The notes under the pieces were generated by a model. The model worked only from the letters and a program-made list of their open reading frames with translations. It was not told the DNA's origin and did no database searches. From a virus, in the IMG/VR virus record IMGVR_UViG_3300037511_000359: a stretch of 64,000 nt of DNA; one strand, 5' to 3'. Position 1 is the stretch's first letter, and every line of letters starts with the position of its first letter. Below, one piece after another: positions 5,325 to 55,259 of this stretch. The position numbers and the translations under genes were made by a program.

Positions 5325-5801
5325 CTACTTTTTCGAGCGCGTCGATGACGCAGTGCTCACCTGCGACTTCGACGCGTTCGCGCGGTCGTGCAGACGCAGC
5401 GCGATGCTCTCGATGCGATGCAGCCACCAAAGGATCGACGGATCGCGGTCGACGTCGATCTGCTCGGCAAGCACCTCGTTCACAGCCGCCGGGTCGATGC
5501 CGCCATCGAGCGCGATATGCGCGGCCTTCGACCGGTTCGGGTACCGCTCGTCACGAGGAACGGTCTGCGCCGGCTGCCCGCGTCCGTAGGTGAGCCACTC
5601 CACCGAGTAGCCCCAGGCGTCGGCGAGCTTCGCCAGCGTCTCCGGCGACCGGTGCACCTCACCGCTGTCGCGCGACAGACGCGACATCGCGCCGGACTTC
5701 AACCCGGCGCGCTCGCCGAGCTTGTTCAGGCTGACCTTCTCGTGCTCCGCCATGAAGCGGACGCGCTCGCCTAGCGTCGTGCCTGTCCAGTCGCGGCCCA
5801 C
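5325..5801 (-). CDS. XRE-family HTH repressor (cI-like)
   Basis: TTLGERVRFMAEHEKVSLNKLGERAGLKSGAMSRL...TLAKLADAWGYSVEWLTYGRG is a classic XRE pattern; divergent from the Cro-like gene. Start codon uncertain. Confidence 0.8.
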   Translation of the reverse strand: MGRDWTGTTLGERVRFMAEHEKVSLNKLGERAGLKSGAMSRLSRDSGEVHRSPETLAKLADAWGYSVEWLTYGRGQPAQTVPRDERYPNRSKAAHIALDGGIDPAAVNEVLAEQIDVDRDPSILWWLHRIESIALRLHDRANASKSQVSTASSTRSKK

Positions 5802-5895
5802 GTCGGCAGCGTGGACGCGCTGTTTGTCGGGCGCAACACCGTCTACTGCTCCGCCTTGACAGCAGCCGTCCAAGCCGCTACAGATATGAAGCACC

Positions 5896-6138
5896 ATGGG
5901 ACGCAGTCTTTGCCCAGCGGGCCGCGCCCTAGAGGACTGGCTCAGAGCGGCAGATATCTCGTTGTCGGCGTTCGCCGAACTGATCGGCGCTTCGCGGGTG
6001 AGCCTGTGGCGTTGGATGACTGGCGCATATCCGCCCACCATCGATTCTGCAGCGCAGATCGAGCGCTGGACCGGCATCCCTGCGCGGATGTGGGCGTCGA
6101 GCGATTCGCTCCGTGCGGGGTTCACCGCCGCGGCCTGA
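5896..6138 (+). CDS. Cro-like HTH protein
   Basis: 80 aa, ISLSAFAELIGASRVSLWRWMTGAYPP...IERWTG; TTGACA at 5856 upstream. Confidence 0.8.
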   Translation: MGRSLCPAGRALEDWLRAADISLSAFAELIGASRVSLWRWMTGAYPPTIDSAAQIERWTGIPARMWASSDSLRAGFTAAA

Positions 6139-6535: not shown

Positions 6536-6566
6536 GCGCGGAGGGCGGGGAGATGAGCGCGGAGGG
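6519..6566. repeat. 21-bp tandem duplication spanning an RBS and start codon
   Basis: GGAGGGCGGGGAGATGAGCGC twice plus a partial third copy; yields MSAEGGE-MSAEG. Confidence 0.85.
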
Positions 6567-6750
6567 TGAGCAGCTGGCGTTCTTCGACGCTCTCCAGTCC
6601 GGAACGAGATGCAGGTGTCGGAGGTGCGCCGGGCTCGCCGTCCCGCAGGACGACGAGTGTCGGAAGCGGCGCCTTGCGTGGCTGCATCCGGCGGACGCCT
6701 GGACGATTCGCGAACTTCGGAAGCTGTCGATCGACGGTTCGTTTCGCTGA
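6532..6750 (+). CDS. small Cys-rich hypothetical protein
   Basis: CRCRRC motif; ATGA overlap. Confidence 0.55.
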   Translation: MSAEGGEMSAEGEQLAFFDALQSGTRCRCRRCAGLAVPQDDECRKRRLAWLHPADAWTIRELRKLSIDGSFR

Positions 6751-6766
6751 GCGCTGGAGTGCGGTG

Positions 6767-42947: not shown

Positions 42948-43504
42948 CCACCGCGCCCTGGCACGCCCCACCGCACGCGTACGCGGGCGTCGGCTCGCGC
43001 GACTGCCCCACCGACATCCTCGACATCATGCGCCGCATCGCAGCCGCGCTCGCGCGTCTCGGTTGGGCGATGCGGTCAGGTGGCGCTCCGGGCGCCGACA
43101 GCGCGTTCGAGGCGGGCGCACGCGAGGCCGGCGGTCGCATCGGGCTGTACCTGCCGTGGCGCGGATTCGAGGGGCGCACGCGCGACGTCGTACTGCACGA
43201 GGCGACGGCGCGCGCGTGGGAGATGGCGCCGCGGTTCCACCCGGGCTGGGACCGCCTCGGTCGCGGCGCGCGGGCGCTGTACGCGCGGAACGTGCATCAG
43301 GTACTTGGGGCGACGTGCGACAACCCCGTGTCGTTCGTCGTGTGCTGGACACGCGAGGGCGCGGCGACCGCGGCAGAGACCGTCGGGCATCGAGGCGGGA
43401 CGCTGACCGCGATCCGTGTCGCCGACTGGGCCAGCGTCGCTGTGTACAATCTGCGGCGCGACAACCATCGCGCGATGTGGACTTCGATGCTTGACGCCGC
43501 TTGA
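42944..43504 (+). CDS. SLOG-superfamily (DprA/Smf/YspA-like) protein
   Basis: YAGVGSRDCP, RSGGAPGADSAFEAGA, LYLPW, ARNVHQVLG, GGTLTAIRVA motifs. Confidence 0.8.
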   Translation: MTTAPWHAPPHAYAGVGSRDCPTDILDIMRRIAAALARLGWAMRSGGAPGADSAFEAGAREAGGRIGLYLPWRGFEGRTRDVVLHEATARAWEMAPRFHPGWDRLGRGARALYARNVHQVLGATCDNPVSFVVCWTREGAATAAETVGHRGGTLTAIRVADWASVAVYNLRRDNHRAMWTSMLDAA

Positions 43505-43518
43505 TGTGCGGCTATCGT
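43491..43518 (+). promoter_or_regulatory. promoter with no downstream start codon
   Basis: TTGACG-N16-TATCGT, same geometry as the other accessory-region promoters. Confidence 0.6.
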
Positions 43519-43524
43519 TACAGC

Positions 43525-43772
43525 ATAAGCTCGGCGTACACCGAGCGGCCGGCTCTGTACGGAGCGCGCGCCAGACCTGGGCCAGAAGCTTGGGCATGCC
43601 GGTGGAAGTCCGGCGCTCTTGAATGTGGCCGGTTCGAGTCCGGCAGTCGCGAGTACCGGTGGCAGGCTCGTTTCCTGCCGATGGCGAGAGGGGCGTGGGC
43701 CCAGTCACTTGGAGGCCGGGAAGAGTGATCAGCGTAGGGCTCGGCGGGCGACCTCCGGGCCCTACGTTTTTT
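43525..43772 (+). ncRNA. candidate structured non-coding RNA with two tandem T-loop-like hairpins
   Basis: Own promoter; hairpins at 43529-46, 43552-65, GCCGG-TGGAAGT-CCGGC (43598-614), GCCGG-TTCGAGT-CCGGC (43628-644), 43661-79; ends in an intrinsic terminator; no convincing ORF. Confidence 0.5.
43732..43772 (+). terminator. Rho-independent terminator
   Basis: CGTAGGGC...GCCCTACG stem followed by TTTTTT; lies between convergent units. Confidence 0.8.
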
Positions 43773-43781
43773 CTTACCCCA

Positions 43782-44030
43782 CTACAGTTCCTCGTCCGGC
43801 GTGTTGTTGACGCGCCGCGCGCGCTCCGCGTCCTCGAGCTCCTCGTCCGCGATGTGTCCTGCGACGAGCCGGCTGTACACATTGCCGTCGCGCGTGTACC
43901 CGCAGCGCGCTTCGACACGCTCGCGTGTCTCCGCGCACCATCCTGCACGGTCGTTTCGCAGGAACCCGCGGCGGCGCATGTGCGCGAGGAGGTCGGCGTC
44001 CTTCACTGCGTCGAGTTTGGTGTCGATCAT
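43782..44030 (-). CDS. hypothetical protein
   Basis: GGAG RBS; only clear minus-strand gene of the accessory region; has its own promoter. Confidence 0.65.
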   Translation of the reverse strand: MIDTKLDAVKDADLLAHMRRRGFLRNDRAGWCAETRERVEARCGYTRDGNVYSRLVAGHIADEELEDAERARRVNNTPDEEL

Positions 44031-44086
44031 GGTTCTCCGTAGCGGCTCGTCGCGGCGCGCGACGGCGAACGCTCTCCCACGCTAGC

Positions 44087-44114
44087 ACAGTAACACATGG
44101 CGAGCGCAGGTCAA
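44087..44114 (-). promoter_or_regulatory. promoter, class C leader
   Basis: TTGACC-N16(ending TGTGT)-TACTGT followed by GCTAGCGTGGGAGAGCG. Confidence 0.65.
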
Positions 44115-44185
44115 GTAAGAATCGTGCGGTGCTGCGCGTAGGATACGGTGCGCAGAAGAATCGACAGAAGGTCTGCGATGAACGC

Positions 44186-44213
44186 TTGACTCTGTTATAC
44201 TCATGCATATAAT
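44186..44213 (+). promoter_or_regulatory. cassette promoter, class B
   Basis: TTGACT-CTGTTATACTCATGCA-TATAAT; AATCGAC upstream. Confidence 0.8.
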
Positions 44214-44255
44214 AGTTCTCAGATGCAGCGCGGTGCTGCGGAGGAGGATGCGGAG

Positions 44256-44576
44256 ATGAGCGAGATCAAGGTTGCTCGTAACCAGGTTGTATCGACTGTC
44301 GTGGCCACGTGGGACGCGGCGCTCGAGGCGATTGATGGGCGCGAGATCACGCTCGACGGCATCCACGGCACGCTCAAGGTCGATCGTTCTCGTCGGTTCG
44401 ATACCCGGGTGATGCACATGAAGTCCCCGAAGGGGCGGCGTACGGAGTCGTACCAGGAGACGCGTCGCCGTCTTCGCGACGACTGGGACAGCGACCTGAC
44501 TCAGGATGCTGAGACGTGCTGCGCCATTGTGCAGGCGCTTGGCGTAACTTTGGCCGTGAAGACGAGCGCGTCGTGA
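44256..44576 (+). CDS. hypothetical protein
   Basis: GGAG RBS; alternative start at 44223. Confidence 0.65.
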   Translation: MSEIKVARNQVVSTVVATWDAALEAIDGREITLDGIHGTLKVDRSRRFDTRVMHMKSPKGRRTESYQETRRRLRDDWDSDLTQDAETCCAIVQALGVTLAVKTSAS

Positions 44577-44842
44577 AAGACCCCGCGTCGATGACGCCTG
44601 GCGAGATCAACCGCGAGCTGGACCGCCTCGACGCGCGACGCTCGCGCAACACGGACGCGTTCATTGCGGCCGGGCGCGGCGAGGAGCGCCCGAGCGAGTA
44701 TCTGCGCAAGGACGATCCGCTGTCGCTCGAGGCGCGGGCGATCCACGACCGATCTAGCGCACTGCGTCGCGAGATCGATCGCCGCTACGGGCCGGGTGCA
44801 CCGAGCCGGCTGCCGCGTGGGTTCCGTGCGGTGCACGTGTAG
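44573..44842 (+). CDS. hypothetical protein
   Basis: GTGA coupling. Confidence 0.6.
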   Translation: MKDPASMTPGEINRELDRLDARRSRNTDAFIAAGRGEERPSEYLRKDDPLSLEARAIHDRSSALRREIDRRYGPGAPSRLPRGFRAVHV

Positions 44843-44888
44843 GCGATCGTGGTCGAGCGAGAATCGACCGACCAGTCGCAACGAGCTC

Positions 44889-44916
44889 TTGACGTTCGTC
44901 TACGTATGCATATACT
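44889..44916 (+). promoter_or_regulatory. cassette promoter, class B (leaderless)
   Basis: TTGACG-TTCGTCTACGTATGCA-TATACT-N7-ATG(44924). Confidence 0.85.
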
Positions 44917-44923
44917 AGTATCT

Positions 44924-45106
44924 ATGAACAGCGAGACGCAGACGGTGACCCTGACCAACGGACGCAAGACGATCGCCTTCGACATCGTGAAGGGCAGCGA
45001 CAAGGCGACGAAGCGCTGGAGCATCGTGAAGGAAGAGATGCACATCGACGCCGCGCGCGCTGAGATGCGCCGACTGATGCGCAAGGGCTACACGGTCGCG
45101 ACGTGA
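44924..45106 (+). CDS. small protein, paralog family member 1 (WGR-like C-terminus)
   Basis: ...IDAARAEMRRLMRKGY; hairpin at 45114-45138 follows. Confidence 0.7.
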   Translation: MNSETQTVTLTNGRKTIAFDIVKGSDKATKRWSIVKEEMHIDAARAEMRRLMRKGYTVAT

Positions 45107-45151
45107 GGCAATAGTGGGCCCGCGGAGAGCGGGCCCGCTGTGAGGCAAGCC

Positions 45152-45292
45152 ATGTTCCTCGACATGCTGGACGATGCAGAGCCGTGCGACCTCACGGCGC
45201 TCGCGGTGATGGGCAGCGCGCCGGAGCGAGCCGCGGCGCTCGATGAGTTGGCACGAAGGCTGCTGGACTGCGACACTGAGCCGGTTCCGTAG
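45152..45292 (+). CDS. 46-aa protein ending in DCDTEPVP (repeat-encoded)
   Basis: Hand translation; C-terminus lies inside the 124-bp repeat. Confidence 0.5.
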   Translation: MFLDMLDDAEPCDLTALAVMGSAPERAAALDELARRLLDCDTEPVP

Positions 45293-45388
45293 CGGCGCCA
45301 CGCGCGAGTACGAAAATCGACCGAGCGAAGCGAGATAGTTGTTGACGTCGGTCTACGGATGCATATAATCGTCAGTATGAAGACGACG
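45265..45388 (+). repeat. 124-bp perfect direct repeat, copy 1 (contains a class B promoter)
   Basis: Identical base by base to 47101-47224; promoter TTGACG(45342)-N16-TATAAT(45364)-N7-ATG(45377). Confidence 0.95.
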
Positions 45389-45601
45389 GCGAGCAAGATG
45401 ATCAGCGGGGCGGCGTACGTGGCAGTGCAGGCGGACCTCGCCTCGCGAGAGGGCGCGGTGAGCGCGCGGCTGGCGCACCTGTTCTTCCAGTGCGCCTGCA
45501 TCGAGGGGCAGAGGACGTTCGAGGAGTGGGAAGCGCTGGTCGTGAAGGCGATGGATGCCGAGGTCAGCGTGGCGGAAGTCCTGAAATACGACGAGGGGTG
45601 A
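45377..45601 (+). CDS. hypothetical protein (leaderless)
   Basis: ATG at +1; hairpin at 45620-45653 follows. Confidence 0.7.
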   Translation: MKTTASKMISGAAYVAVQADLASREGAVSARLAHLFFQCACIEGQRTFEEWEALVVKAMDAEVSVAEVLKYDEG

Positions 45602-45671
45602 GAGGAAGCAAGGGCGCGGCAAGGCCGCCCACCCGAGAGGGTGAGGCGGCTTGGGCCGTTGGGAGGATTCG

Positions 45672-46166
45672 ATGACGACGACCGATACGATCCTGATCAA
45701 GAAGGTCCATGGGCGCATGTTCGGCGTGGAGGTGTCGGAGCCTAGGCGCGTTGGCGAACTCGCCAACGGAGCAGCCGGCTACGAGGCGGAGGTTGCTTTC
45801 TACCGCGAGGGGGCGCGCGTGGGCTCCGGCCGGTGGGATGTGGAGGGGTTCGAGGGCTGCGTAGGCCTCGATGGGCGCCCGTTGGATCTGTTCCCCAGCG
45901 GCGACGAGGGCGATGTGTACTACGCCTTGGCCACCGAGGTGCGTGGCTACCTCTCCAGGCTCGCGAAGCCGGAGCGCGTGGAGCCGGATCAACCCTGGCG
46001 CGTCAACGGCGAGGTCAGGAGCCTCGAGGTGATGAGCGTGGACGGCGATGAGGCGACCCTTCGGGTCCGAGCACTCGGCACGGGCAAGTGGGCAATGTGG
46101 GGCCGAGCGCCCGTAAGCAGTATGCTCACTTGCCGGTCCTGGACATCCATTGGCAAACGGAGCTAA
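45672..46166 (+). CDS. hypothetical protein
   Basis: GGAGG RBS; hairpin at 46175-46192 follows. Confidence 0.65.
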   Translation: MTTTDTILIKKVHGRMFGVEVSEPRRVGELANGAAGYEAEVAFYREGARVGSGRWDVEGFEGCVGLDGRPLDLFPSGDEGDVYYALATEVRGYLSRLAKPERVEPDQPWRVNGEVRSLEVMSVDGDEATLRVRALGTGKWAMWGRAPVSSMLTCRSWTSIGKRS

Positions 46167-46274
46167 TTGTACTCGGCGGGCTTGCGCCCGCCAGGCTATC
46201 GCGTTACATGAGAAGCGCTGCCGGGGGATGACCGGAGCGCGAACGCTGCGGCGTTGCCGCACAGGAGTCCCCGC

Positions 46275-46547
46275 ATGATGCCTAACATCAAGGTTGGTCG
46301 CTACGAGTCTACCGAGGTCGTGGCCCTTGGATGGGTTGGATGGCTGGAACCAGCCGACAAGGGCTGGATCGTGTTTGTAGACACGCAGCACAGACCGCAC
46401 GTTTACCTTAACCGCGATACGGTAACAGGCGCAGTATTGCCGGACGATCCCGTCGCGCGCGATGAGGACCGTCGCGCACTGGCCGTATCGCCGCATCTCG
46501 CCGATTCATGGCCCGGTGGCCCGAGCAGGAAGCCGCCGACATGGTGA
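46275..46547 (+). CDS. hypothetical protein
   Basis: AGGAG RBS; GWVGWLEP.DKGWIVFVD. Confidence 0.6.
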   Translation: MMPNIKVGRYESTEVVALGWVGWLEPADKGWIVFVDTQHRPHVYLNRDTVTGAVLPDDPVARDEDRRALAVSPHLADSWPGGPSRKPPTW

Positions 46548-47128
46548 AGTGTATGATCGTATCGATTGCGCGGTGCGCCACGTTTGCATGCGCGGGTGCG
46601 GCGCTGGGCGGGTGCGGCTTACTGCATCCCGACTACGACCCGTGTCCGAGCGACGGCACAGGCACACCGACGCCAGGACCCATCATAGAACCCGCGAGCG
46701 TCGGCGCTGGCGATAACGGCGTCGCCGAGCGCTACAGGAAGCTGCCAAACGGCACCGTGTGCGTCTGCGGCGAGTACGAGATCGGGTGCCACGAGACGCC
46801 GGAGGGCGCTGAGTCGTCAATGTCCTGCGGCTACGACGCCCAGGGACAGCCGGATTGCATTCCCGTAGTCAGGCCGCCGGACCCAAGTGTCCGGTGGGAC
46901 AACGAGAAGGGGGAGTGGGTGGATGACGCGGCGGGGCCCATGTCCAAGTGGTCGTGTTCATTCTCGGTAGTTCTTCGCCGGGACGGTTCGTCTAGAGACG
47001 ATGTGCGCATCCGGCAGGCGCAGTCATACACAAGGGCCAACCTGGCTCACTTCGCATGGTGCGCGAGGAAGACCGACCAATGGTTCGAGTACAAGTGCAA
47101 GGACTGCGACACTGAGCCGGTTCCGTAG
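46541..47128 (+). CDS. Cys-rich lipoprotein
   Basis: Signal peptide with LGGC lipobox; multiple Cys; ends in DCDTEPVP inside repeat copy 2. Confidence 0.65.
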   Translation: MVKCMIVSIARCATFACAGAALGGCGLLHPDYDPCPSDGTGTPTPGPIIEPASVGAGDNGVAERYRKLPNGTVCVCGEYEIGCHETPEGAESSMSCGYDAQGQPDCIPVVRPPDPSVRWDNEKGEWVDDAAGPMSKWSCSFSVVLRRDGSSRDDVRIRQAQSYTRANLAHFAWCARKTDQWFEYKCKDCDTEPVP

Positions 47129-47224
47129 CGGCGCCACGCGCGAGTACGAAAATCGACCGAGCGAAGCGAGATAGTTGTTGACGTCGGTCTACGGATGCAT
47201 ATAATCGTCAGTATGAAGACGACG
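47101..47224 (+). repeat. 124-bp perfect direct repeat, copy 2 (contains a class B promoter)
   Basis: Identical to 45265-45388; TTGACG(47178)-N16-TATAAT(47200)-N7-ATG(47213). Confidence 0.95.
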
Positions 47225-47422
47225 CGCAAGACGAACCGCCCCGCGAACCTGAACGTTGTAAAACTGGTCGACGGCGACCGCTGGGTCCAGTTCGAGACCA
47301 GCAAGGGTCGCCTGACCGCGTGGATGACGAACAGCGCGGGCGAGGAGTGCGCGGTCGCGCTGGACGTGGCGCGCGAGCGGATGGCGACGCTGACGGGCGC
47401 GGGGTGGAGCGTGGCGGCGTGA
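47213..47422 (+). CDS. small protein, paralog family member 2
   Basis: ...LDVARERMATLTGAGW; hairpin at 47432-47459 follows. Confidence 0.7.
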   Translation: MKTTRKTNRPANLNVVKLVDGDRWVQFETSKGRLTAWMTNSAGEECAVALDVARERMATLTGAGWSVAA

Positions 47423-47483
47423 GGAGGGCACGGGCCTGCGTCGGTGACGACGCGGGCCCTGCGCGGCAAGCGAGGAGGCGACC

Positions 47484-47789
47484 ATGCGGAAGTTCAACAG
47501 CGGAAACGGGGCGGATGTGTGCGACTGGTGCGCAGCGATGCTGCGGGACGGCGGTCGCGTGGTGAAGGCGCACCGCGAGCTGCGCTCGCCTGGAGCGACG
47601 CTGCGCTACTGCGGCTGGCGCTGCATGGAGGAGCACGTCGACAGCGACGCTGGCATGCATCGTGCGTGGGCTCTAATGCTGGCACGGGAGGCGGAGCGGC
47701 TGCATCTGATCGCGGTGGCGCATCCGGAAGGTGACACGCTGACGCGTATGCAGAACCGGCTGTACAGCGTCGAGGTGAAGCCCGGCTGA
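47484..47789 (+). CDS. Zn-finger-like hypothetical protein
   Basis: CDWC...YCGWRC; GGAGG RBS. Confidence 0.65.
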   Translation: MRKFNSGNGADVCDWCAAMLRDGGRVVKAHRELRSPGATLRYCGWRCMEEHVDSDAGMHRAWALMLAREAERLHLIAVAHPEGDTLTRMQNRLYSVEVKPG

Positions 47790-47818
47790 TGAATCGACAT
47801 CGCCCGTGTCGATTCATC

Positions 47819-47846
47819 TTGCGTCAGTTCTACGTATGCATATACT
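47819..47846 (+). promoter_or_regulatory. cassette promoter, class B (leaderless)
   Basis: TTGCGT-CAGTTCTACGTATGCA-TATACT-N7-ATG(47854); preceded by an 11-bp inverted repeat ATGAATCGACA (47789-47817). Confidence 0.8.
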
Positions 47847-47853
47847 GGTCTCT

Positions 47854-48051
47854 ATGAACGACGCGACGATGCAGATGGTTCGGATGATCAGCGGCAAGAC
47901 GGTGCGCACCTACACCATCACGAAGGGCATGCCGGTTGCCACGATGTGGAGCCGAGCCACCGGCGACGTGGTGATGGCGCTCGATGCGGCGCGTGAGGAG
48001 AGCGCGTCGCTCCTCGGCAGCGGGTGGTCGATGCTGCCGAGCGCGCTGTGA
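47854..48051 (+). CDS. small protein, paralog family member 3
   Basis: ...LDAAREESASLLGSGW; perfect 11-bp hairpin at 48063-48088 follows. Confidence 0.7.
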   Translation: MNDATMQMVRMISGKTVRTYTITKGMPVATMWSRATGDVVMALDAAREESASLLGSGWSMLPSAL

Positions 48052-48098
48052 GATGAGGCGGGACAGCCGGCGCTGAGGCGCCGGCTGTGGAGGCGAGG

Positions 48099-48341
48099 AT
48101 GAAGATTGAGAGAAGTGATGTGAGCGACATGAGCCGGGTGACCGCGAAGGTCATTGCGGAGCGCGTGCCGGATCCCAACGGCTGGAACCTGGCGGTGCGC
48201 GGCATCGCCGATCGGCTCCGCCTCGACGTGACGCGCATCGCCTTCGGTTCGGTGTTACGTGACACATGCTACGCGGTGACGGAAGAGGCCTACAAGCAGG
48301 GACGCACGGTCGACCAGTTCTGGCAGGCGGTGAACGCGTGA
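48099..48341 (+). CDS. hypothetical protein
   Basis: GGAGG RBS. Confidence 0.6.
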   Translation: MKIERSDVSDMSRVTAKVIAERVPDPNGWNLAVRGIADRLRLDVTRIAFGSVLRDTCYAVTEEAYKQGRTVDQFWQAVNA

Positions 48342-49036
48342 CTACCTCCCGAACTCAACGCCCGCGCGGCGACACGTCCACCGCGCGCGTCTTCGACGCG
48401 CTGCAGGCGCTCGCCGTGAAGCACGGCAGCATGGCCGCGGCGGCGCGTATTGTCGGGTGCTCGCGCGAGACGGCGCGCCGGATCCTCACCGAGGACGCAG
48501 GCGCGTCGCCGGACCTCGCGCAGCGCATCCTGGAGGCCGCAGCGGACATGCCGCTGGCGGAGCCAGCGCCGTCCGATGGATCCACGCTCGACCGCATCGA
48601 GCGAGCCGCGGAGGAGCGCCGCGCCGCCGCGGACGCGCTGCGCTACGAACCGCGACCTGCGACGGACGCGCACACGGCGAGCGCATCGCCGCTCGACACG
48701 CTCGCAGCTGTCGTCGCAACGCTGCTTGTGCGCCATACGACTGACCCCATCGCGGAGATCGACCCGAAGCGCGTCGGCTGTTTTGCGCTCCGCGTGGAGC
48801 GTCACGCGCTGTCGCTGCTGCTCCAGCGGTACGGCAACTGGAACCAGGTCGCGCTGGCGACGCGTGGCCGATCGGTGGGTAGTTCGATCCAGCGCAACGT
48901 TGAGCGGCATGCGTACCCGCATGAGCCGATGTCGCCGGAGCTGGCACGCGCGGTGCACGAGCTGCTGAACGAGGACACGGGCGCGTGGGCTGCGCTGCTC
49001 GACGCATTCGGAGAGGACGAGCACGCGGCGGAGTAG
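48338..49036 (+). CDS. protein with two HTH-like segments
   Basis: ALAVKHGSMAAAARIVGCSRETARRIL and LLLQRYGNWNQVALATRG...SIQRNV. Confidence 0.6.
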   Translation: MTTSRTQRPRGDTSTARVFDALQALAVKHGSMAAAARIVGCSRETARRILTEDAGASPDLAQRILEAAADMPLAEPAPSDGSTLDRIERAAEERRAAADALRYEPRPATDAHTASASPLDTLAAVVATLLVRHTTDPIAEIDPKRVGCFALRVERHALSLLLQRYGNWNQVALATRGRSVGSSIQRNVERHAYPHEPMSPELARAVHELLNEDTGAWAALLDAFGEDEHAAE

Positions 49037-49080
49037 GACACGGTGCGCTAAAGAATCGACGCCGTGGCTTCGACGAGAAC

Positions 49081-49108
49081 TTGACTCTGTTATACGTATG
49101 CATATAAT
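49081..49108 (+). promoter_or_regulatory. cassette promoter, class B (leaderless)
   Basis: TTGACT-CTGTTATACGTATGCA-TATAAT-N7-ATG(49116); near-identical to 44186. Confidence 0.85.
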
Positions 49109-49115
49109 CCTGAGT

Positions 49116-49436
49116 ATGCAGACGACGACGGAGCAGGGGCAGGCGGTTGCGAAGACGATCCTTGAGCAGCTTGGCGCAGCGGTCCGCATGGAGCTCGCGG
49201 TCAAGCAGTCGCTCTCGCTGACGGAGCAGCGTGGCGGCATCGTGATGCACCTCGTGGGGTGCCGTGCCACGTCGGGCAAGCGCGTGAAGATCGTGCTGAC
49301 GGACGAGGACCTGTACGACATCGAGGTGTCGAAACTGAACAAACGCACCTTTGATCTGAAGGTCCTCGGCGAGGCGCGCGGAGTCGGCTGCGAGCAACTC
49401 CGCGAGACGGCGCTGCGCCTCGCGTTCGGCGAGTGA
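49116..49436 (+). CDS. hypothetical phage protein
   Basis: AKTILEQLG...DLYDIEV...VGCEQL pattern; leaderless. Confidence 0.7.
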   Translation: MQTTTEQGQAVAKTILEQLGAAVRMELAVKQSLSLTEQRGGIVMHLVGCRATSGKRVKIVLTDEDLYDIEVSKLNKRTFDLKVLGEARGVGCEQLRETALRLAFGE

Positions 49437-49493
49437 GCGGAGGTGTACGCGTCGGTCCGTCAAAAAAACACTACGAGCCGTCGCAGCGAGCTC

Positions 49494-49521
49494 TTGACGT
49501 CGTTCTACGAATGCATATACT
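49494..49521 (+). promoter_or_regulatory. cassette promoter, class B (leaderless)
   Basis: TTGACG-TCGTTCTACGAATGCA-TATACT-N7-ATG(49529); upstream flank near-identical to 44889. Confidence 0.85.
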
Positions 49522-49528
49522 CATCTCT

Positions 49529-49735
49529 ATGAACAACGTCGCCGCCAACAAGACCAGCAAGATCAACGTACGCCGCTTCGAGAAGGGTGATAGCTACGTG
49601 CAGTTCACGTTCGAGGGCGCGTACGCGAAGATGCGCAGCACGCTGCTGGAGCGTGCGGAGATGACCCGCACGGTGGCGCTCGACAGCATCGCGCGCCTCG
49701 AGGCGGACGGGTGGGTCGAGACGGACGCGTGCTGA
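49529..49735 (+). CDS. small protein, paralog family member 4
   Basis: ...VALDSIARLEADGW; hairpin at 49751-49775 follows. Confidence 0.7.
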   Translation: MNNVAANKTSKINVRRFEKGDSYVQFTFEGAYAKMRSTLLERAEMTRTVALDSIARLEADGWVETDAC

Positions 49736-49793
49736 GGTAGCGCGGCGTAGGCCGGCACCCGCGAGGGTCGCCGGCTTGCGTCGGTAGGAGGGT

Positions 49794-50030
49794 GTGGAGA
49801 TGACTAGCCATAGAGCGAAGATGAGCGACGCGGCGCTTGCCGAGATGAGAGAACTGGCAATCACAGATGGACAAAGGCTTGCTCAGAAGATGTTTGACAA
49901 GCGAGGAAAGGGTCAGACGCGAACCGAGATCCATGTCGATCAGGCTACGCTGGCCGCAATGCTTGCGATTGCCTTCGAGCGCGGGTACGAAGCGAGGGAC
50001 GCCAAGCCGTCCGATGGCGGACAGCAATGA
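49794..50030 (+). CDS. hypothetical protein
   Basis: GGAGG RBS. Confidence 0.6.
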   Translation: MEMTSHRAKMSDAALAEMRELAITDGQRLAQKMFDKRGKGQTRTEIHVDQATLAAMLAIAFERGYEARDAKPSDGGQQ

Positions 50031-50263
50031 CCCGCCTCGACATCGCCCGCCTCCTCGCCACCGCGGAGCGCGCAGCAGCGCTGGCGCTCGCCAGCGCCGA
50101 CGCTGCAGAGTGCTGCGCGTACACCGCGGCCGGGACCGACGCGCTGGAGAGCGCGGTGCTCAGCGCGACCGACGACCTGGCACAGCGCGTGCAGGAGATC
50201 GCGGCGAGCATCGGCGATCGGCTGATCCGCGCGGCCGGTCGATTTTGTTGCGCGCACAGTTGA
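50027..50263 (+). CDS. Ala-rich hypothetical protein
   Basis: ATGA coupling. Confidence 0.5.
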   Translation: MTRLDIARLLATAERAAALALASADAAECCAYTAAGTDALESAVLSATDDLAQRVQEIAASIGDRLIRAAGRFCCAHS

Positions 50264-50287
50264 CACCTGAGAGCTAGGTGATATTGT
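50260..50287 (+). promoter_or_regulatory. promoter, class C leader
   Basis: TTGACA-N16-TATTGT followed by ACTAGCGTGGTAGAGCGCGTCCGCGATG. Confidence 0.65.
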
Positions 50288-50312
50288 ACTAGCGTGGTAG
50301 AGCGCGTCCGCG

Positions 50313-50543
50313 ATGGCGCGCGGAGGGAGTAAGGGTGTCGTAGTGGGTACGATGTACAACACCGAGACCAACAGGACTTGTCCGCTGCGCGATGTGCTCG
50401 GCGTCGCGTCCGGTGACGGGCTGACTCCGCCGCTCTTCATCTACCTGCGGCTTTCTTGCGGTCACTGGGATAGCCGATACGCGTGCAGGCCGATCCGGAA
50501 GAAGGCGCGCTGCCTCTCGTGTCGCGACGAGAGGCGTCCGTGA
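50313..50543 (+). CDS. small Cys/His protein
   Basis: LRLSCGH...ARCLSC; start uncertain. Confidence 0.55.
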   Translation: MARGGSKGVVVGTMYNTETNRTCPLRDVLGVASGDGLTPPLFIYLRLSCGHWDSRYACRPIRKKARCLSCRDERRP

Positions 50544-50746
50544 CCCCTCCCCGCCGCCGTCCCCTCCCCTGCATGCTCGCAGAGGCGTCCTCGCGCCTCG
50601 CTGAGATCGCGCCTAGGCTCGGGCGCACCGATGGCCCGCCGCTCGTACCGACGCCGTACGAGCGCGCCCTGCGCCGGCGCGATCGGCTCGTGCCCGCCGC
50701 GGTGCGCGAGCGGCTGGAACTCGCGCGCATCGACCGCGCGTGGTGA
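50540..50746 (+). CDS. hypothetical protein
   Basis: GTGA coupling. Confidence 0.45.
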   Translation: MTPPRRRPLPCMLAEASSRLAEIAPRLGRTDGPPLVPTPYERALRRRDRLVPAAVRERLELARIDRAW

Positions 50747-50792
50747 GTCGACGTCGTGTAGGCGGCTGCGCGACCGATCTGCGAGATAGTGC

Positions 50793-50820
50793 TTGACTCC
50801 GGTCTACGGATGCATATGCT
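50793..50820 (+). promoter_or_regulatory. cassette promoter, class B (leaderless)
   Basis: TTGACT-CCGGTCTACGGATGCA-TATGCT-N7-ATG(50828). Confidence 0.85.
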
Positions 50821-50827
50821 AGTCTGT

Positions 50828-51304
50828 ATGAACAACGAGACGACGACCACCGATAGCAGCAAGGTTCATCCGTTCGAGCGCGCCGGCCTGGGCGTGGCGC
50901 CGTTCCGATTCGTCGGTTACTACGAGAGCAAGTTCCAGGCGATCCCAGGCGACCCCTCCTGCCCCGTTCTCCCTGGCTTGTCGTGCGACTTCTGCGGACA
51001 AGGCATCATGATCGTCTGCCAGATCCAGGATGCGCGCGGCGCACGCTTCAAGGTCGGGCAGGACTGCTGCCGCAGAACGAACGACGGGCGGCTCGTCGCG
51101 GCGGTCGAGAAGGTTCTCACCGATCGCGAGCGCGAGATCCGCAAGGCGCGTAGCGCGAAGCGCCGGACGCAGCGCCGCGCCAAGCCTGCGAGCAAGGCGC
51201 AGATCGAGTACGCGCGGAAGCTCGGCGCGAGCGACGCGGACCTGGACGGCGCAACAATCGACACCTGCTCCGCGCTGATCGAGCGTCTCCGATTCGTGCG
51301 ATGA
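50828..51304 (+). CDS. Zn-binding hypothetical phage protein
   Basis: HPFERAGLG.APF...CDFCGQGI...FKVGQDCC. Confidence 0.75.
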   Translation: MNNETTTTDSSKVHPFERAGLGVAPFRFVGYYESKFQAIPGDPSCPVLPGLSCDFCGQGIMIVCQIQDARGARFKVGQDCCRRTNDGRLVAAVEKVLTDREREIRKARSAKRRTQRRAKPASKAQIEYARKLGASDADLDGATIDTCSALIERLRFVR

Positions 51305-51315
51305 GCGCAGCCCGC

Positions 51316-51350
51316 CACCTACGTCCAGCGTGCGATACTGGACGTAGGTG
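51316..51350. terminator. perfect 13-bp hairpin (terminator / processing site candidate)
   Basis: CACCTACGTCCAG-N9-CTGGACGTAGGTG between a stop codon and the next promoter; no U-tract. Confidence 0.55.
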
Positions 51351-51378
51351 CGCCTGCGACCGATTCACGAAATGGTGC

Positions 51379-51406
51379 TTGACGATGGTCTACGAGTGTA
51401 TATACT
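51379..51406 (+). promoter_or_regulatory. cassette promoter, class B variant (leaderless)
   Basis: TTGACG-ATGGTCTACGAGTGTA-TATACT-N7-ATG(51414). Confidence 0.8.
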
Positions 51407-51413
51407 AACTCAT

Positions 51414-51695
51414 ATGAACAACGCGACGACGGTTGAGGCGATGCGGGCGGCTATGGCGAGCGGCGACTGCAAGGCGATCATCAAGCTGAGCTCGGGCACC
51501 GGCTGGTCGATCTGGAATGAGGCGATGAACGCGTACTACGCCCCGACGGGCACGCACCCGAGCTACTGCGACGCGAACGATCGCCCGTTGCCGGATACCC
51601 TGGTCCGGTTCCCCGACATCGCGCGTCGGATGCAGGAGGCGCGCGATCGGCTGCCGCACCTCGTCGATCGGCTGGAGCGCGACGGATGGTGCTGA
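51414..51695 (+). CDS. hypothetical protein (leaderless)
   Basis: ATG at +1. Confidence 0.7.
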   Translation: MNNATTVEAMRAAMASGDCKAIIKLSSGTGWSIWNEAMNAYYAPTGTHPSYCDANDRPLPDTLVRFPDIARRMQEARDRLPHLVDRLERDGWC

Positions 51696-52033
51696 AGCCT
51701 ACGAACGCAGCAGATCGGCTTCGCGCCCAGCGCGCGGAGCGTGCCGCGCAGATCGCCCGCGAGGACAGCGGCGAGGCGCGCGGCTTCCGGTACGCGATCG
51801 AGTGCGGGGTGGGATGGGTCGGTCCGTGGCATCTGCCCGGACCGCACGTGCACGACGACAGCTGCACGCATCGCGATCCGGTGATCTACGAGGGCGATCG
51901 CGAGAGCGCGCGGGCGCGAGCGCAGCGACACGCAGAGCGCAACCGGCTCGGCGGCGCGATCCATCACTCGCCGATGATCGTGCCGGAGTCGGAGATACAG
52001 CGGCGTGTCGCTGCGCGGAGGTGGGGACGATGA
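51686..52033 (+). CDS. hypothetical protein
   Basis: Overlaps the upstream stop; coupled to the next gene. Confidence 0.55.
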   Translation: MVLKPTNAADRLRAQRAERAAQIAREDSGEARGFRYAIECGVGWVGPWHLPGPHVHDDSCTHRDPVIYEGDRESARARAQRHAERNRLGGAIHHSPMIVPESEIQRRVAARRWGR

Positions 52034-52248
52034 AGACGATGCTGATGCTTGCCGCGCTCCTCGCGAGCGCGTTGCTGCTGACCGCGTGCCCGTTCACGGC
52101 GCGCGGTCGCGCACCGTGTCCAGCGTGCGATGAGGAGTGCGACGACCACGGCTGCAACGAGTGCCGAGCGAAGCACTGCCCGGACGCTGGCCCGGACGCC
52201 AGCGACGCGGTCGCACATGCTGCGACCGATCTGCGTGATCGTTGTTGA
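52030..52248 (+). CDS. putative Cys-rich lipoprotein
   Basis: MKTMLMLAALLASALLLTAC lipobox; CPAC...C..HGC..C. Confidence 0.6.
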   Translation: MKTMLMLAALLASALLLTACPFTARGRAPCPACDEECDDHGCNECRAKHCPDAGPDASDAVAHAATDLRDRC

Positions 52249-52272
52249 CAGGTTCGCGTAGTGTTGTATAAT
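52245..52272 (+). promoter_or_regulatory. promoter, class C leader
   Basis: TTGACA-N16-TATAAT followed by CTTAGCGTGGAAGAGCGTGTCCGCGATG. Confidence 0.8.
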
Positions 52273-52278
52273 CTTAGC

Positions 52279-52641
52279 GTGGAAGAGCGTGTCCGCGATG
52301 TGCGGCGCAAGACGGAGGCGAGAATGAGCGACGAGACGACGATGCGGTCGGCGATTGATGTGGCACAGGAGATAGCGGATCGCTTAGTTCGCGACGAGCC
52401 AGTGGACATCAGGCCCGTACTGCTAGATGCGATCAAGCAGGCTCGACATGATGGCGCCGTCGAAGCGCTGCGCGAGGTCGCGCGACGTGTCCAGCTGCAG
52501 GCGAAAGCATGCGAGGCGACTGCAACGCGGTATCATAAGCATGGCGACGTCGAGGGCTGCGCGCTGGAGACCGGTAAGTTGCAGGCGTACGAGGGCGTTG
52601 TGCGGACGGTGGATGAACTGGCGTCTCGGCCTCGCTCCTGA
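52279..52641 (+). CDS. hypothetical protein
   Basis: Leaderless GTG at 52279 or ATG at 52324 with RBS. Confidence 0.6.
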   Translation: MEERVRDVRRKTEARMSDETTMRSAIDVAQEIADRLVRDEPVDIRPVLLDAIKQARHDGAVEALREVARRVQLQAKACEATATRYHKHGDVEGCALETGKLQAYEGVVRTVDELASRPRS

Positions 52642-52680
52642 CTTGCATTCTTCTACGCATCCTTCATCCTAGGTACACCC

Positions 52681-53616
52681 ATGCTCGACATCGACTACCT
52701 GCTCCGAGTCCGGACGCTCGTCACGCACGAAGGATGCGCCGACGGCATCGCGTCGGCGATCATCCTGCACGACGCGCTCCCTAGCGCACGAATCGAGTTC
52801 GTGCAGTACAACACCGCGGCGCACCGCGATCTGCGCGCCGAGCCTGGCATGCTGTTCTGCGACATGATGCCGCCCGAGGCGCGTGTGAAGGAGTTCGTCG
52901 GCGCGGGCGCGATCGTACTGGATCACCATCGCGGCGCGCGCGAGATCGTCGAGGCGTTCGGAGAACGCGGCGTGTTTGCGGACGAGGAGCGCGAGCCGAG
53001 CGTGAGCGGTGCGACTCTGGCGTTTCGCGAGGTGTGGTATCGCGTCGCGGCGACGCAGCGCCAGCCGAGCGACTACTACGCGCTGTTCGACTTCGCCAAG
53101 CTCGCTGGCATCCGCGACACGTGGCAGCGCAACGATCCGCGCTGGCGCGAAGCGTGCGCACAGGCTGCGGCGCTGCGCTTCTGGCCGCCCGAGATGCTGA
53201 TCGGCGCACCCATCGACGCGCTCGCTGCGCGCCTAGAGATCGGCGACGTCCTGCTCCAGCGCGACGCGGAGCGTGACGAGCGATCGATCGCGGAGGCGTA
53301 CCGGTTCGAGGCCGGCGGGCTGCGCGTCGTAGTGTTCGAGGGGCTGCACACGAGCGACATCGCGGAGCGTCTGTCGAGCGAAGCGGATCTCGTGCTCGGC
53401 TGGCACTACGCGATGGAGGACGGTCGCGCGCGGATGGTCGTGTCGTGCCGGTCGCGCGGCGCGGTGTCGTCGCTCGCGCTGGCGAAGGCCAACGGCGGGG
53501 GCGGGCACACGCAGGCGGCTGGGTTCCGCATCGATGCGCGGGCGGACGCGAGCCCGTATGTTACGCTGCGGCAACTCGTCGAGGAGTACGCCGGAGTGAT
53601 GCGCATCGCCGCATGA
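52681..53616 (+). CDS. DHH/DHHA1-family phosphoesterase
   Basis: THEGCADG, FCD, VLDHH, IRDTW and GGGHTQAAG motifs. Confidence 0.88.
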   Translation: MLDIDYLLRVRTLVTHEGCADGIASAIILHDALPSARIEFVQYNTAAHRDLRAEPGMLFCDMMPPEARVKEFVGAGAIVLDHHRGAREIVEAFGERGVFADEEREPSVSGATLAFREVWYRVAATQRQPSDYYALFDFAKLAGIRDTWQRNDPRWREACAQAAALRFWPPEMLIGAPIDALAARLEIGDVLLQRDAERDERSIAEAYRFEAGGLRVVVFEGLHTSDIAERLSSEADLVLGWHYAMEDGRARMVVSCRSRGAVSSLALAKANGGGGHTQAAGFRIDARADASPYVTLRQLVEEYAGVMRIAA

Positions 53617-53630
53617 GGTGCTCGCTGTAG

Positions 53631-55259
53631 ATGCACGCGAACCCGTACGCCGCGTTGTTCCTCGAGATGAGCGACCCGGAGAAGAACCGGGAGCTTCCGC
53701 GCGATCTCTCGTTTCGCGACATGGTCTGCCGCGGCGACATGGGCGACCTACCAGCGTCGGACACGCAGATCGCTCTCCTGTCCGCGGTCGACGGACGATC
53801 GATCGAAGACATCCTTCCGCGCGACCGGATGTTGTTCCACTTCAACACGGAGCGGCTGCCGTCGGGTCGACCTAGCCTCGTCATCCTGCGGACCGGTGTC
53901 CGCGCCGCGAAGTCCCTGATCGCTGCGCTCTCGCTCCTCTACAACGCGCTATTTTGCCAGTTTCGACGGCCACCGGACCCGAAGCAGGGCGAACGTCCTC
54001 AGGCGGACGGCATGATCGGCGTGCGCTCCGGCGAGGAGGTGCGCGCGCTCATCGTCGGCCCGAAGCTGCATCACGGTGCAGCGCCGCTGGAACACATCCG
54101 CGGCACGATGAAGAAGAGCCCGGTCCTCAGCAAGTTGATCGAGGAGGACAAAGCGGAGTCGATCACGGTGCGACGTCCCGACGGCGCGCTCGTGAAGATC
54201 ATGCGCATCGCCGCGGACAAGGGCGGCGGCAACCTGCGCGGCACGTGGCTCGCTGGCATCCTGTTTGACGAGGCCGCGTTCCACGACGACGACGAGGCCG
54301 CGGTGAACCTCGGCGACAACATCGATGCCGTGCTCGGTCGCCTTCTGCCGGGCGCACAAGCGTGGGTTGTGTCGTCACCGTGGTCCGAAGACGACTCGTT
54401 CAATCGGCTGTTCCTGCGCTTCTTCGGGCGCCCCGCCGACGCGCTCGCGTTCCACTCGGACACGCGCAGCATGAACCCGGCCTACCCGCAGGCGGACATC
54501 GATCGCGTGCGCCGGTACGATCCTGACAAGGCACAACGCGAGTTCGACGCGCTACCGCTTGCTGCTGGGAACAAGGCGTTCTTTCCGCTCGACGCGATCG
54601 AGAAGAGCATCAACGAGAAGCGCGACATGTACCTCGCGCCGGAACTTGGCGTGCCGCACAGCGCAGGGTCCGACTGGGGCTTCACGAAGAACAGCAGCGC
54701 GCTCGCGATCGCGCGTCCGATGCGCGCGACGCTCGACGGTCGCGAGGTCGTCAAGGCTGCGCTCGCGTACCACGAAGAGAAGCGCCCAGACAAGGGCGTG
54801 TCGCTGAAGCCGTCCGAGGTGGTGCGCGACTTCGCGCAGAAGTGCCGCAGGTACAGGGCGCGCAAGATCCAGGGCGACTACCACAGCCGCGAGACGACGG
54901 ACGAAGAACTGTCGAAACTGCGCGAGCAGGACCGCACGTTCGACATCATCTACGAGCCCGTGAGCCAGCAGCCGGACGAGATCGGCGAGCGCTTTGCGGA
55001 GATGCGTCGCAGGATGCAGGAGGGCTTGATCGACCTGCCTGATGACCCGGTGCTGCGGAAGCAGCTGGAGGATACGCGCAGTCGCGTGCTCCCGGGCGGA
55101 CGCATCGGGATCGTGGTACCGAAGCACGGCGCTCGCCACGGCGACGTGATGCAGGCGGCGATCTTGGCGCTCGTACAGGTAGACTTGACGGTGCGCCCGA
55201 CGGAGCGCAAGCCTATGACGCGGGGACGACGCGAGATGAACGACACAGGAGGGTTTTGA
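53631..55259 (+). CDS. terL: terminase large subunit
   Basis: Walker A variant LRTGVRAAKS, Walker B ILFDEAAF, coupling motif VVSSPW, RNase-H-like nuclease GSDWG...HGD; directly upstream of the portal module. Confidence 0.85.
   Translation: MHANPYAALFLEMSDPEKNRELPRDLSFRDMVCRGDMGDLPASDTQIALLSAVDGRSIEDILPRDRMLFHFNTERLPSGRPSLVILRTGVRAAKSLIAALSLLYNALFCQFRRPPDPKQGERPQADGMIGVRSGEEVRALIVGPKLHHGAAPLEHIRGTMKKSPVLSKLIEEDKAESITVRRPDGALVKIMRIAADKGGGNLRGTWLAGILFDEAAFHDDDEAAVNLGDNIDAVLGRLLPGAQAWVVSSPWSEDDSFNRLFLRFFGRPADALAFHSDTRSMNPAYPQADIDRVRRYDPDKAQREFDALPLAAGNKAFFPLDAIEKSINEKRDMYLAPELGVPHSAGSDWGFTKNSSALAIARPMRATLDGREVVKAALAYHEEKRPDKGVSLKPSEVVRDFAQKCRRYRARKIQGDYHSRETTDEELSKLREQDRTFDIIYEPVSQQPDEIGERFAEMRRRMQEGLIDLPDDPVLRKQLEDTRSRVLPGGRIGIVVPKHGARHGDVMQAAILALVQVDLTVRPTERKPMTRGRREMNDTGGF

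Follow-up and report, generated by a model that had tools for sequence, protein, structure and literature searches.

Background

Promoter-early stem-loops (PeSLs) are mobile regulatory cassettes of the hyperplastic regions of T4-type phages (PMC2839356, PMC4122927). Across the five PeSL subclasses the stem-loop lies inside the promoter motif, overlaps it, or stands directly beside it (Arbiol et al. 2010, PMC2839356), and genome comparisons display a topology in which two flanking motifs in one genome face a single chimeric motif in the other (PMC2839356, Fig. 3). The present study concerns an array of nine repeated promoter blocks, named P1 to P9 from left to right, in the genome of an uncultured phage with a guanine-plus-cytosine (G+C) content of about 67%, which was analyzed over a stretch of 64,000 nt of the IMG/VR record IMGVR_UViG_3300037511_000359 (hereafter, the window). 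We consider it probable that the array is an early-gene hyperplastic region composed of portable, leaderless expression modules that double as recombination patches, a system that works in the manner of the PeSLs but stands outside the PeSL family. A first-pass annotation of the window had proposed a gene-shuffling platform in which each promoter is followed by a leaderless open reading frame (ORF) and a hairpin, and this interpretation is partly supported by our results.

The array resembles the PeSLs in several respects: the motif is present in many copies, each a predicted strong sigma-70-type early promoter of about 100 bp whose upstream part is rich in A/T; these copies stand ahead of small ORFans in a region that varies; they are accompanied by stable stem-loops that have no obvious U-tract; and close relatives differ by the insertion, deletion, or replacement of ORFs. 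The topology of two motifs versus one chimera also recurs, at P8/P9, between the window and a related phage designated L253. However, the hosts of PeSLs are T4-type myoviruses, whereas the phage of the window has a Mu-like portal and protease and 67% G+C; the PeSL motif ends with a Shine-Dalgarno sequence and a start codon, whereas the block described here contains no Shine-Dalgarno sequence and itself includes the start and first codons of predicted leaderless mRNAs; and the spacer between the − 35 and − 10 hexamers carries a conserved core that is specific to the genome. The stem-loop does not form part of the promoter unit: P5 and a promoter of a second type (type B, at 50260) adjoin a stem-loop, but elsewhere the hairpin lies 200–480 bp downstream, after the first ORF. 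PeSLs are further characterized by mini-circles that contain one motif and its cargo, whereas the present array is known from sequence alone. The array is set outside the PeSL family by the missing Shine-Dalgarno sequence, the separate stem-loop, and a phage that is not T4-type. Particular to this array are its lineage and base composition, the splitting of the cassettes by hairpins, an AATCGAC box in fixed phase, and a core that evolves in concert.

In temperate phages, early operators and stoperators such as the gp71 sites of mycobacteriophage L5 are short, recurrent sites held in one orientation relative to transcription. The core of the array is likewise a short site that recurs in one orientation, overlaps or adjoins promoters, and differs between related phages. 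Unlike stoperators, it occupies the spacer in all of the array promoters and occurs at no other place in the window, no repressor is linked to it, and it is absent from the promoter (6183) next to the repressor-like gene.

Promoter blocks

All nine promoters listed by the first-pass annotation were recovered at the positions it gave, all on the + strand and all within 44.1–51.4 kb. They share a plan consisting of TTGACN, a strict 16 bp that ends in TACGnATGCA (tCTACGnATGCA), and TATAMT. Searched with up to three mismatches, the motif TACGNATGCATATRMT had nine matches versus 1.0 ± 0.9 in shuffled sequences, and none of 100 shuffles reached nine. A sigma-70 scan of positions 43400–53000 returned 11 sites where 1.1 ± 1.0 were expected, every one of them on the + strand and with a 16-bp spacer; the hexamers agree with the sigma-70 consensus at 9–12 of 12 positions, and the promoters are predictions at the level of sequence.

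The block measures about 80–90 bp and is ordered as an A-tract with AATCGAC, GATAGTT, TTGACN, 16 bp, TATAMT, 7 nt ending in T, and ATG, with conservation from about − 65 to + 15, so that it takes in the first four to six codons. AATCGAC sits within the A-tract at − 62 to − 56 and GATAGTT abuts the − 35. The AATCGAC box, placed by the first-pass annotation some 25–30 bp upstream, can be given an exact phase, as it begins 27 nt ahead of the − 35 in P1 through P6 and is lacking in P7 through P9. The ATG begins exactly 7 nt past the − 10 in eight of the nine promoters, as had been claimed, P1 being the exception, and all eight have T at − 1 and A at + 1. The start regions read ATGAAsrACG and the like, with codons of the AAC/AAG-ACG type, and unrelated proteins consequently begin with MNNATT, MNDAT, or MKTT. 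Since the ATG follows the − 10 by only 7 nt, a Shine-Dalgarno site could not be accommodated. The host’s RNA polymerase with its primary sigma factor would start at the A of the ATG, in which case the first gene would be translated from a leaderless mRNA.

The same plan is found in related phages, which were identified by searches with TerL and with the ORF behind P8 and are all metagenomic. The relative treated as the closest, R (IMG/VR UViG_3300049023_000137, loci L231 and L246), has a TerL 84% identical to that of the window; TerL identity is 86% in L247, 68% in L248, 65% in L253, 63% in L249, and 60% in L251, and L256 was found via the P8 ORF. The leaderless plan is present in all seven, with spacers of 16 bp, or 17 bp in the case of L247, and the ATG 6–7 nt past the − 10. 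About 25 array-type promoters across the eight phages obey it, and the tally of such first ORFs comes to 32 when four other promoters with 16-bp spacers elsewhere in the window are included. R has nine to ten promoters directed rightward and three leftward; L251 has about 17 in both orientations, with A/T tracts at the same upstream place.

The four other promoters of the window (20834, 21313, 32559, and 35414) have the ATG 6–7 nt past the − 10 and bear a TGTGT-type extended − 10 in place of the TACGnATGCA core; because they too follow the leaderless plan, leaderless starts appear to be general in this phage. A promoter-like site just left of the array (43491–43518; TTGACG, 16 bp, TATCGT) has no ATG at the leaderless position. 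At 45359, 47195, and L256:1839 the core contains an ATG (within ATGCAT) that shares the frame of the leaderless ATG and precedes it by 18 nt, and as a result ORF finders and the public gene call add six codons that reach into the promoter.

Recombination joints

Cassette presence and absence with breakpoints at the promoter block, which the first-pass annotation had set as a check on its proposal, is seen in the relatives. Promoter P1759 of L253 is chimeric, its upstream half corresponding to the sequence before P8 and everything from the − 35 on to P9 and ORF9a; its place is taken in the window by P8, ORF8a, a hairpin, and P9, such that one promoter faces a whole extra cassette. A second chimeric block, P500 of L253, joins a P5-like upstream half to the core of P7 and ORF7a. 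The cassette contents of the P8/P9 locus differ among the window, R, L253, L249, and L248, and gene content at the array differs in every relative. Between the window and R, the conserved unit begins at the AATCGAC box, takes in the promoter and its first ORF, and ends in the left arm of the hairpin; the ORF past the hairpin is replaced. R also has the cassette 3 pair twice and a P1-type promoter with its leader inverted.

Within the window, a perfect 124-bp direct repeat (100% identity; 45265–45388 and 47101–47224, both +) contains P3 in one copy and P4 in the other. It comprises the last eight codons of the upstream ORF, the entire promoter block, and ATGAAGACGACG, and it gives two unrelated ORFs identical last eight codons; its right end is at + 12, the end of the shared ATGAAGACGACG start region. 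These comparisons indicate that the repeated blocks also act as patches of homology, at which cassettes have been deleted, inserted, duplicated, and inverted. Recombination genes encoded in the window include a Sak4-like annealase, a PD-(D/E)XK exonuclease, and a DprA-like protein.

Promoters and hairpins make up 17% of the region and contain 13 of the 27 distinct homology endpoints (p ~2e-4). Another eight lie at plain gene junctions with neither promoter nor hairpin, from which it follows that joints track gene boundaries in general. Such a pattern is congenial to the most serious alternative, in which the blocks are ordinary co-regulated early promoters, alike only because each has to be strong under a single regulator and without a special role in recombination, illegitimate recombination takes place anywhere, and selection keeps the joints at gene boundaries, yielding a Hendrix-type mosaic. 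The joints at ORF7b/7c (50027) and ORF9b (~51700–51722) are examples of such junctions, and the left end of the 124-bp repeat, which is inside unrelated coding sequence, also fits this alternative. It is harder to reconcile with both L253 chimeras, which cross over inside shared promoter sequence and each leave an intact hybrid promoter, with the coincidence of the repeat’s right end and the end of the conserved start region, and with paralogous cores that are more alike than orthologous ones (described below), which needs block exchange or very strong common selection. We therefore judge it rather unlikely. The earlier claim that the block is a recombination handle is borne out by the joints inside it, P1759 and P500 among them, and must be narrowed in view of the eight endpoints at plain junctions: the distribution of endpoints indicates that the blocks are real crossover sites, but that joints survive elsewhere too.

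Spacer core

The sequence of the spacer core varies among the phages. It is TACGnATGCA in eight of the nine promoters of the window and in L248 and L256, TACGAGTGCA in L249, TACGAGTGTA in P9 and L253, TACGAGCGTA in L247 and one copy of R, and the perfect palindrome TACGATCGTA in most of the 13 promoters of R. L251 has the same promoters without a conserved spacer, which indicates that the core is an addition to a generic promoter and does not define it. Reading the core as an extended − 10 (TGn) was rejected, as its TG is off register by one base and the R-type core has none. With regard to a restriction or methylation reading of ATGCAT and CGATCG, the latter is common throughout the window (98 copies), and no methyltransferase was seen there.

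Orthologous promoters of the window and R were compared in the pairs P4/R5575, P5/R6161, and P8/R9250. From the − 35 to − 1, identity is 0.71–0.74 between paralogues versus 0.43–0.54 between orthologues, and the nearest neighbor of almost every promoter is a paralogue in its own genome. The relation is reversed over the 45 nt upstream, where orthologous pairs reach an identity of about 0.6 in three cases out of five, versus 0.37 between paralogues. Paralogous cores that are more alike than orthologous ones point to concerted evolution, which requires that blocks exchange sequence, that a trans-acting factor places all of them under common selection, or both; the stretch from the spacer core to the discriminator is homogenized within each genome.

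A regulatory function is more likely for the core than a role as a recombination signal. It is palindromic in R and specific to each genome, with intermediates between the types, and no binding protein has been identified; we tentatively favor a regulator-binding site kept uniform by conversion. TACGnATGCA in the window and TACGATCGTA in R would then probably be sites of a phage-specific regulator superimposed on the generic promoter. One candidate for this regulator is a predicted helix-turn-helix (HTH) protein of 232 aa encoded inside the array (48338–49036, +), for which PHROGs returned nothing. Its orthologue in R (L246 reverse complement, ~6850–7400) has no N-terminal HTH and a CxxC...HxxC tail instead, and the two proteins share the middle domain alone (residues 108–198, 47% identity). 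The other candidate is the repressor-like protein at 5325–6125, next to the coreless promoter noted above. A more elaborate proposal, which we put forward tentatively and hold to be possible but not the likelier outcome, is that the core is the operator of a phage regulator, such as the product of 48338–49036, that would act over all leaderless early promoters; that conversion keeps the operator uniform across 9–13 promoters; that the relatives differ in the specificity of their early regulons; and that the core and the hairpins together would make up a two-tier program, its leaderless modules being portable and able to recombine, in a lineage that has no relation to T4.

Cassette genes and hairpins

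A cassette consists of a promoter, a small leaderless ORF, a hairpin, and one to three ORFs led by Shine-Dalgarno sites. The first ORFs encode 60–158 aa, in agreement with the range of 60–160 aa previously given, and the ORFs past the hairpins carry GGAGG-type Shine-Dalgarno sites. Hairpins begin 5–12 nt past the stop of the first ORF in six cassettes; they are GC-rich, mostly closed by tetraloops, and devoid of U-tracts, with folding z-scores of − 3.8 to − 5.9 and no equally stable structure in 200 shuffles. The five hairpins named by the first-pass annotation do fold and do lack a U-tract, but the count has to be raised to six first ORFs, as the hairpin at 51316–51350 was missed. All of the features that follow are on the + strand.

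The block of P1 (44159–44258) has AATCGAC at 44159, the − 35 at 44186, and the − 10 at 44208–44213; its ATG at 44223 lies 9 nt past the − 10, and an in-frame ATG led by a Shine-Dalgarno sequence follows 33 nt downstream, at 44256. P1 shares a subtype with P6 (79% over 76 nt). In the block of P2 (44862–44940), AATCGAC is at 44862, the − 35 at 44889, the − 10 at 44911–44916, and the leaderless ATG at 44924; the first ORF (44924–45106, 60 aa), a probable distant member of a family termed A, is followed by a hairpin at 45111–45141 with a 13-bp stem, a GGAGA loop, no U-tract, and a z-score of − 5.6. P3 (45315–45392; − 35 at 45342, ATG at 45377) is identical to P4 and precedes a family B ORF (45377–45601, 74 aa) with orthologues twice in R and once in L251; the hairpin at 45609–45661 (z − 4.1) belongs to a repeated family, GGCCGCC-CACCC-GNRA-GGGTG-AGGCGGC. 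P4 (47151–47228; − 35 at 47178, ATG at 47213), orthologous to the R promoter at 5575, precedes a family A ORF (47213–47422, 69 aa) and a hairpin at 47432–47459 with a 12-bp stem, a GTGA loop, and a z-score of − 5.9, in the left arm of which homology with R ends.

P5 (47788–47870) has a weak − 35, TTGCGT, at 47819 and its ATG at 47854, and an inverted repeat with a 13-bp stem (47788–47818), located directly before that − 35, contains the AATCGAC box. The P5 ORF (47854–48051, 65 aa, family A) is followed by a hairpin at 48063–48088 (11-bp stem, TGAG loop, z − 5.6). No hairpin follows the 106-aa ORF (49116–49436) of P6 (49054–49131; − 35 at 49081, ATG at 49116). P7 (49474–49545; − 35 at 49494, ATG at 49529), which has no AATCGAC box, leads to a family A ORF (49529–49735, 68 aa) and to a hairpin at 49740–49785 with a GCGA loop (z − 3.8), of the same family as the hairpin behind the P3 ORF. 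P8 (50770–50846) has the upstream half GCGACCGATCTGCGAGATAGTGC, its − 35 at 50793, and its ATG at 50828; the 158-aa ORF (50828–51304) is present in R, L249, and L256 and absent from L253, and its hairpin (51316–51350, 13-bp stem, z − 5.2) stands just before P9. P9 (51356–51431; − 35 at 51379, ATG at 51414), which bears the core variant given above, precedes a 93-aa ORF (51414–51695) that is present in L253 and absent from R and L249.

The cargo had been described as mostly unrelated. This is not so for the first ORFs at 47213, 47854, and 49529, which are paralogous by BLASTP and constitute family A, with 44924 as a probable fourth member by alignment only; it does hold for five of the nine first ORFs, among which no relation is detectable. 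An AlphaFold2 model of a family A protein (47854–48051; mean predicted local distance difference test score 82) has four strands, a helix, and a strand, and fold searches gave only weak, recurrent matches to WGR-like domains (E 0.1–3), which we treat as a lead and not as an assignment. Almost none of 20 array ORFs matched Pfam, with 19 counted as lacking a match, exceptions being a weak, sub-threshold match to SinI for 45377–45601 and a weak HTH match for 48338–49036.

With several first ORFs paralogous, duplication must also have contributed to the array, and the question arises whether the array derives mainly from tandem duplication and divergence of a unit of promoter, family A gene, and hairpin, so that the repeated promoters would be a by-product of paralogy and not a platform for foreign genes. 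One small family does hold three to four first ORFs in the window, two in R, and probably two in L251, the cassette 3 pair was duplicated in R, and P3 equals P4. The other five first ORFs of the window and almost all ORFs past the hairpins, however, show no detectable relation to one another, unrelated proteins of 55–207 aa stand behind the same block, and the variable ORFs differ between orthologous cassettes. We consider an origin mainly by tandem duplication improbable.

The position of the hairpin is kept in orthologous cassettes while its sequence is replaced, as found for ORF4a, ORF5a, ORF7a, and ORF8a. The window also has a canonical U-tract terminator (50215–50250), conserved in L249 and L253, directly before the type-B promoter at 50260, and in comparison the U-less hairpins are more likely attenuators or RNA-stabilizing 3′ structures than full terminators. 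Acting in RNA, they would attenuate transcription, terminate it weakly, or stabilize the 3′ end, and would set an abundant leaderless first product apart from the variable cargo downstream. The weakest alternative is an integron-like site-specific system, in which the hairpins would be attC-like or a dedicated recombinase or nuclease would act on the palindromic core; hairpins directly 3′ of ORFs and the perfect palindrome of R recall such a system, but integron cassettes have an attC after each ORF together with the tyrosine integrase IntI and attI, whereas neither an integrase nor another recombinase was detected in or beside the array among the roughly 50 ORFs scanned with Pfam or PHROGs, the hairpins are tetraloop stems of RNA type that are unrelated in sequence between orthologous cassettes, and the joints lie in extended homology and not at one fixed nucleotide, so that this reading was rejected as very improbable.

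Type-B promoters (TTGACA, 16 bp, TATAAT-like) are followed by a conserved leader, TAGCGTGGnAGAGCGyGTCCGCGATG, and are kept in six relatives (L247:1109, L248:3473, L249:2667, L253:1225, L253:2624, L256:2913, and L251:9710). The window has two: the first, at 50260–50287, forms together with the preceding terminator and its leader an element at 50215–50351, and the second (52245–52323; perfect TTGACA-16-TATAAT, leader TAGCGTGGAAGAGCGTGTCCGCGATG) lies ahead of the packaging genes at the right end of the array. Their leader could be a control element of the late operon, for example one for pausing or antitermination, or could function as a leader RNA. Rfam detected nothing credible over 43400–53000.

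Phage and relatives

The window holds a leftward block of genes that includes the annealase, the exonuclease, and an Xre-like, repressor-like protein, and a long rightward block with an intein-bearing helicase, many small genes, and the DprA-like protein. The superfamily-2 helicase (6566–9394; ResIII and Helicase_C) has an intein with Hint and homing-endonuclease domains at residues ~107–361. Packaging and head genes start at 52.3 kb, the array occupying the 8 kb directly upstream, and comprise TerL (53631–55259), a Mu-type portal fused to Mu F (57572–60517), and a Mu protease I-like protein; by these predicted domains the phage is not T4-type. It had been called temperate, a label that we do not retain: its sole basis is the weak match to an Xre-like repressor (5325–6125), which rests on PHROGs with a weak Pfam HTH, and no integrase was seen with Pfam or PHROGs among the roughly 50 ORFs scanned, a scan that did not exhaust the window.

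Searches against cultured phages gave no match for the array region (megablast) or for the primase-helicase, and a single match for TerL, at 32% identity and to an uncultured virus. TerL homologues with 44–48% identity occur in the genomes of Sorangium, Byssovorax, and Polyangiaceae; these are the sole hint of the host, which is probably a myxobacterium of the Polyangia. Scans of viral and genome contigs with the exact motif TACGNATGCATATAMT produced single chance matches in AT-rich genomes and no second array, and a TerL-alignment scan of metagenome contigs found nothing. Promoters of the leaderless plan were absent from the stretches fetched for the distant TerL relatives L232–L234, L254, L255 (a Sorangium prophage), and L257. 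All of the relatives' contigs recovered end in the array or close to it, those of L248, L249, L253, and L246 within it or at its border, and the repeated blocks may break the assemblies of the relatives.

Discussion

Several observations weigh against the interpretation of the array as a region of expression modules that double as recombination patches. Besides the eight of 27 endpoints at plain junctions, nearly all endpoints coincide with some gene boundary, so that promoters are not demonstrably enriched over other boundaries. The evidence for exchange within the blocks amounts to two clear chimeras and one internal duplicate, and most relatives are short contigs. The 21.6 kb of the Sorangium prophage, whose TerL is related, contain no promoter of this kind. 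Transcription starts, timing, and the function of the hairpins are deduced from sequence; given the canonical terminator at 50215–50250, it may be that the U-less hairpins do not act as terminators; the uniformity of the core within a genome could stem from gene conversion alone, with no regulator; and the intermediates (P9, L249, L253, and L247) that link the cores of the window and of R weaken the notion of two discrete specificities.

If the blocks are nonetheless the recombining expression modules that we propose, early-gene shuffling at repeated promoter blocks would not be peculiar to AT-rich, T4-type phages, but would recur in a high-G+C clade that has Mu-like head genes and probably infects myxobacteria, from which, to our knowledge, few studied phages are known. 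Because a single block contains the promoter, the transcription start, the start codon, and the first codons, any crossover inside it would yield an expressed, in-frame gene, which would make the module as compact as possible. The block may also be a ready-made, strong, leaderless expression element for high-G+C hosts, and the concerted change of the core across orthologous promoters offers a natural system in which to weigh gene conversion against the co-evolution of regulator and operator.

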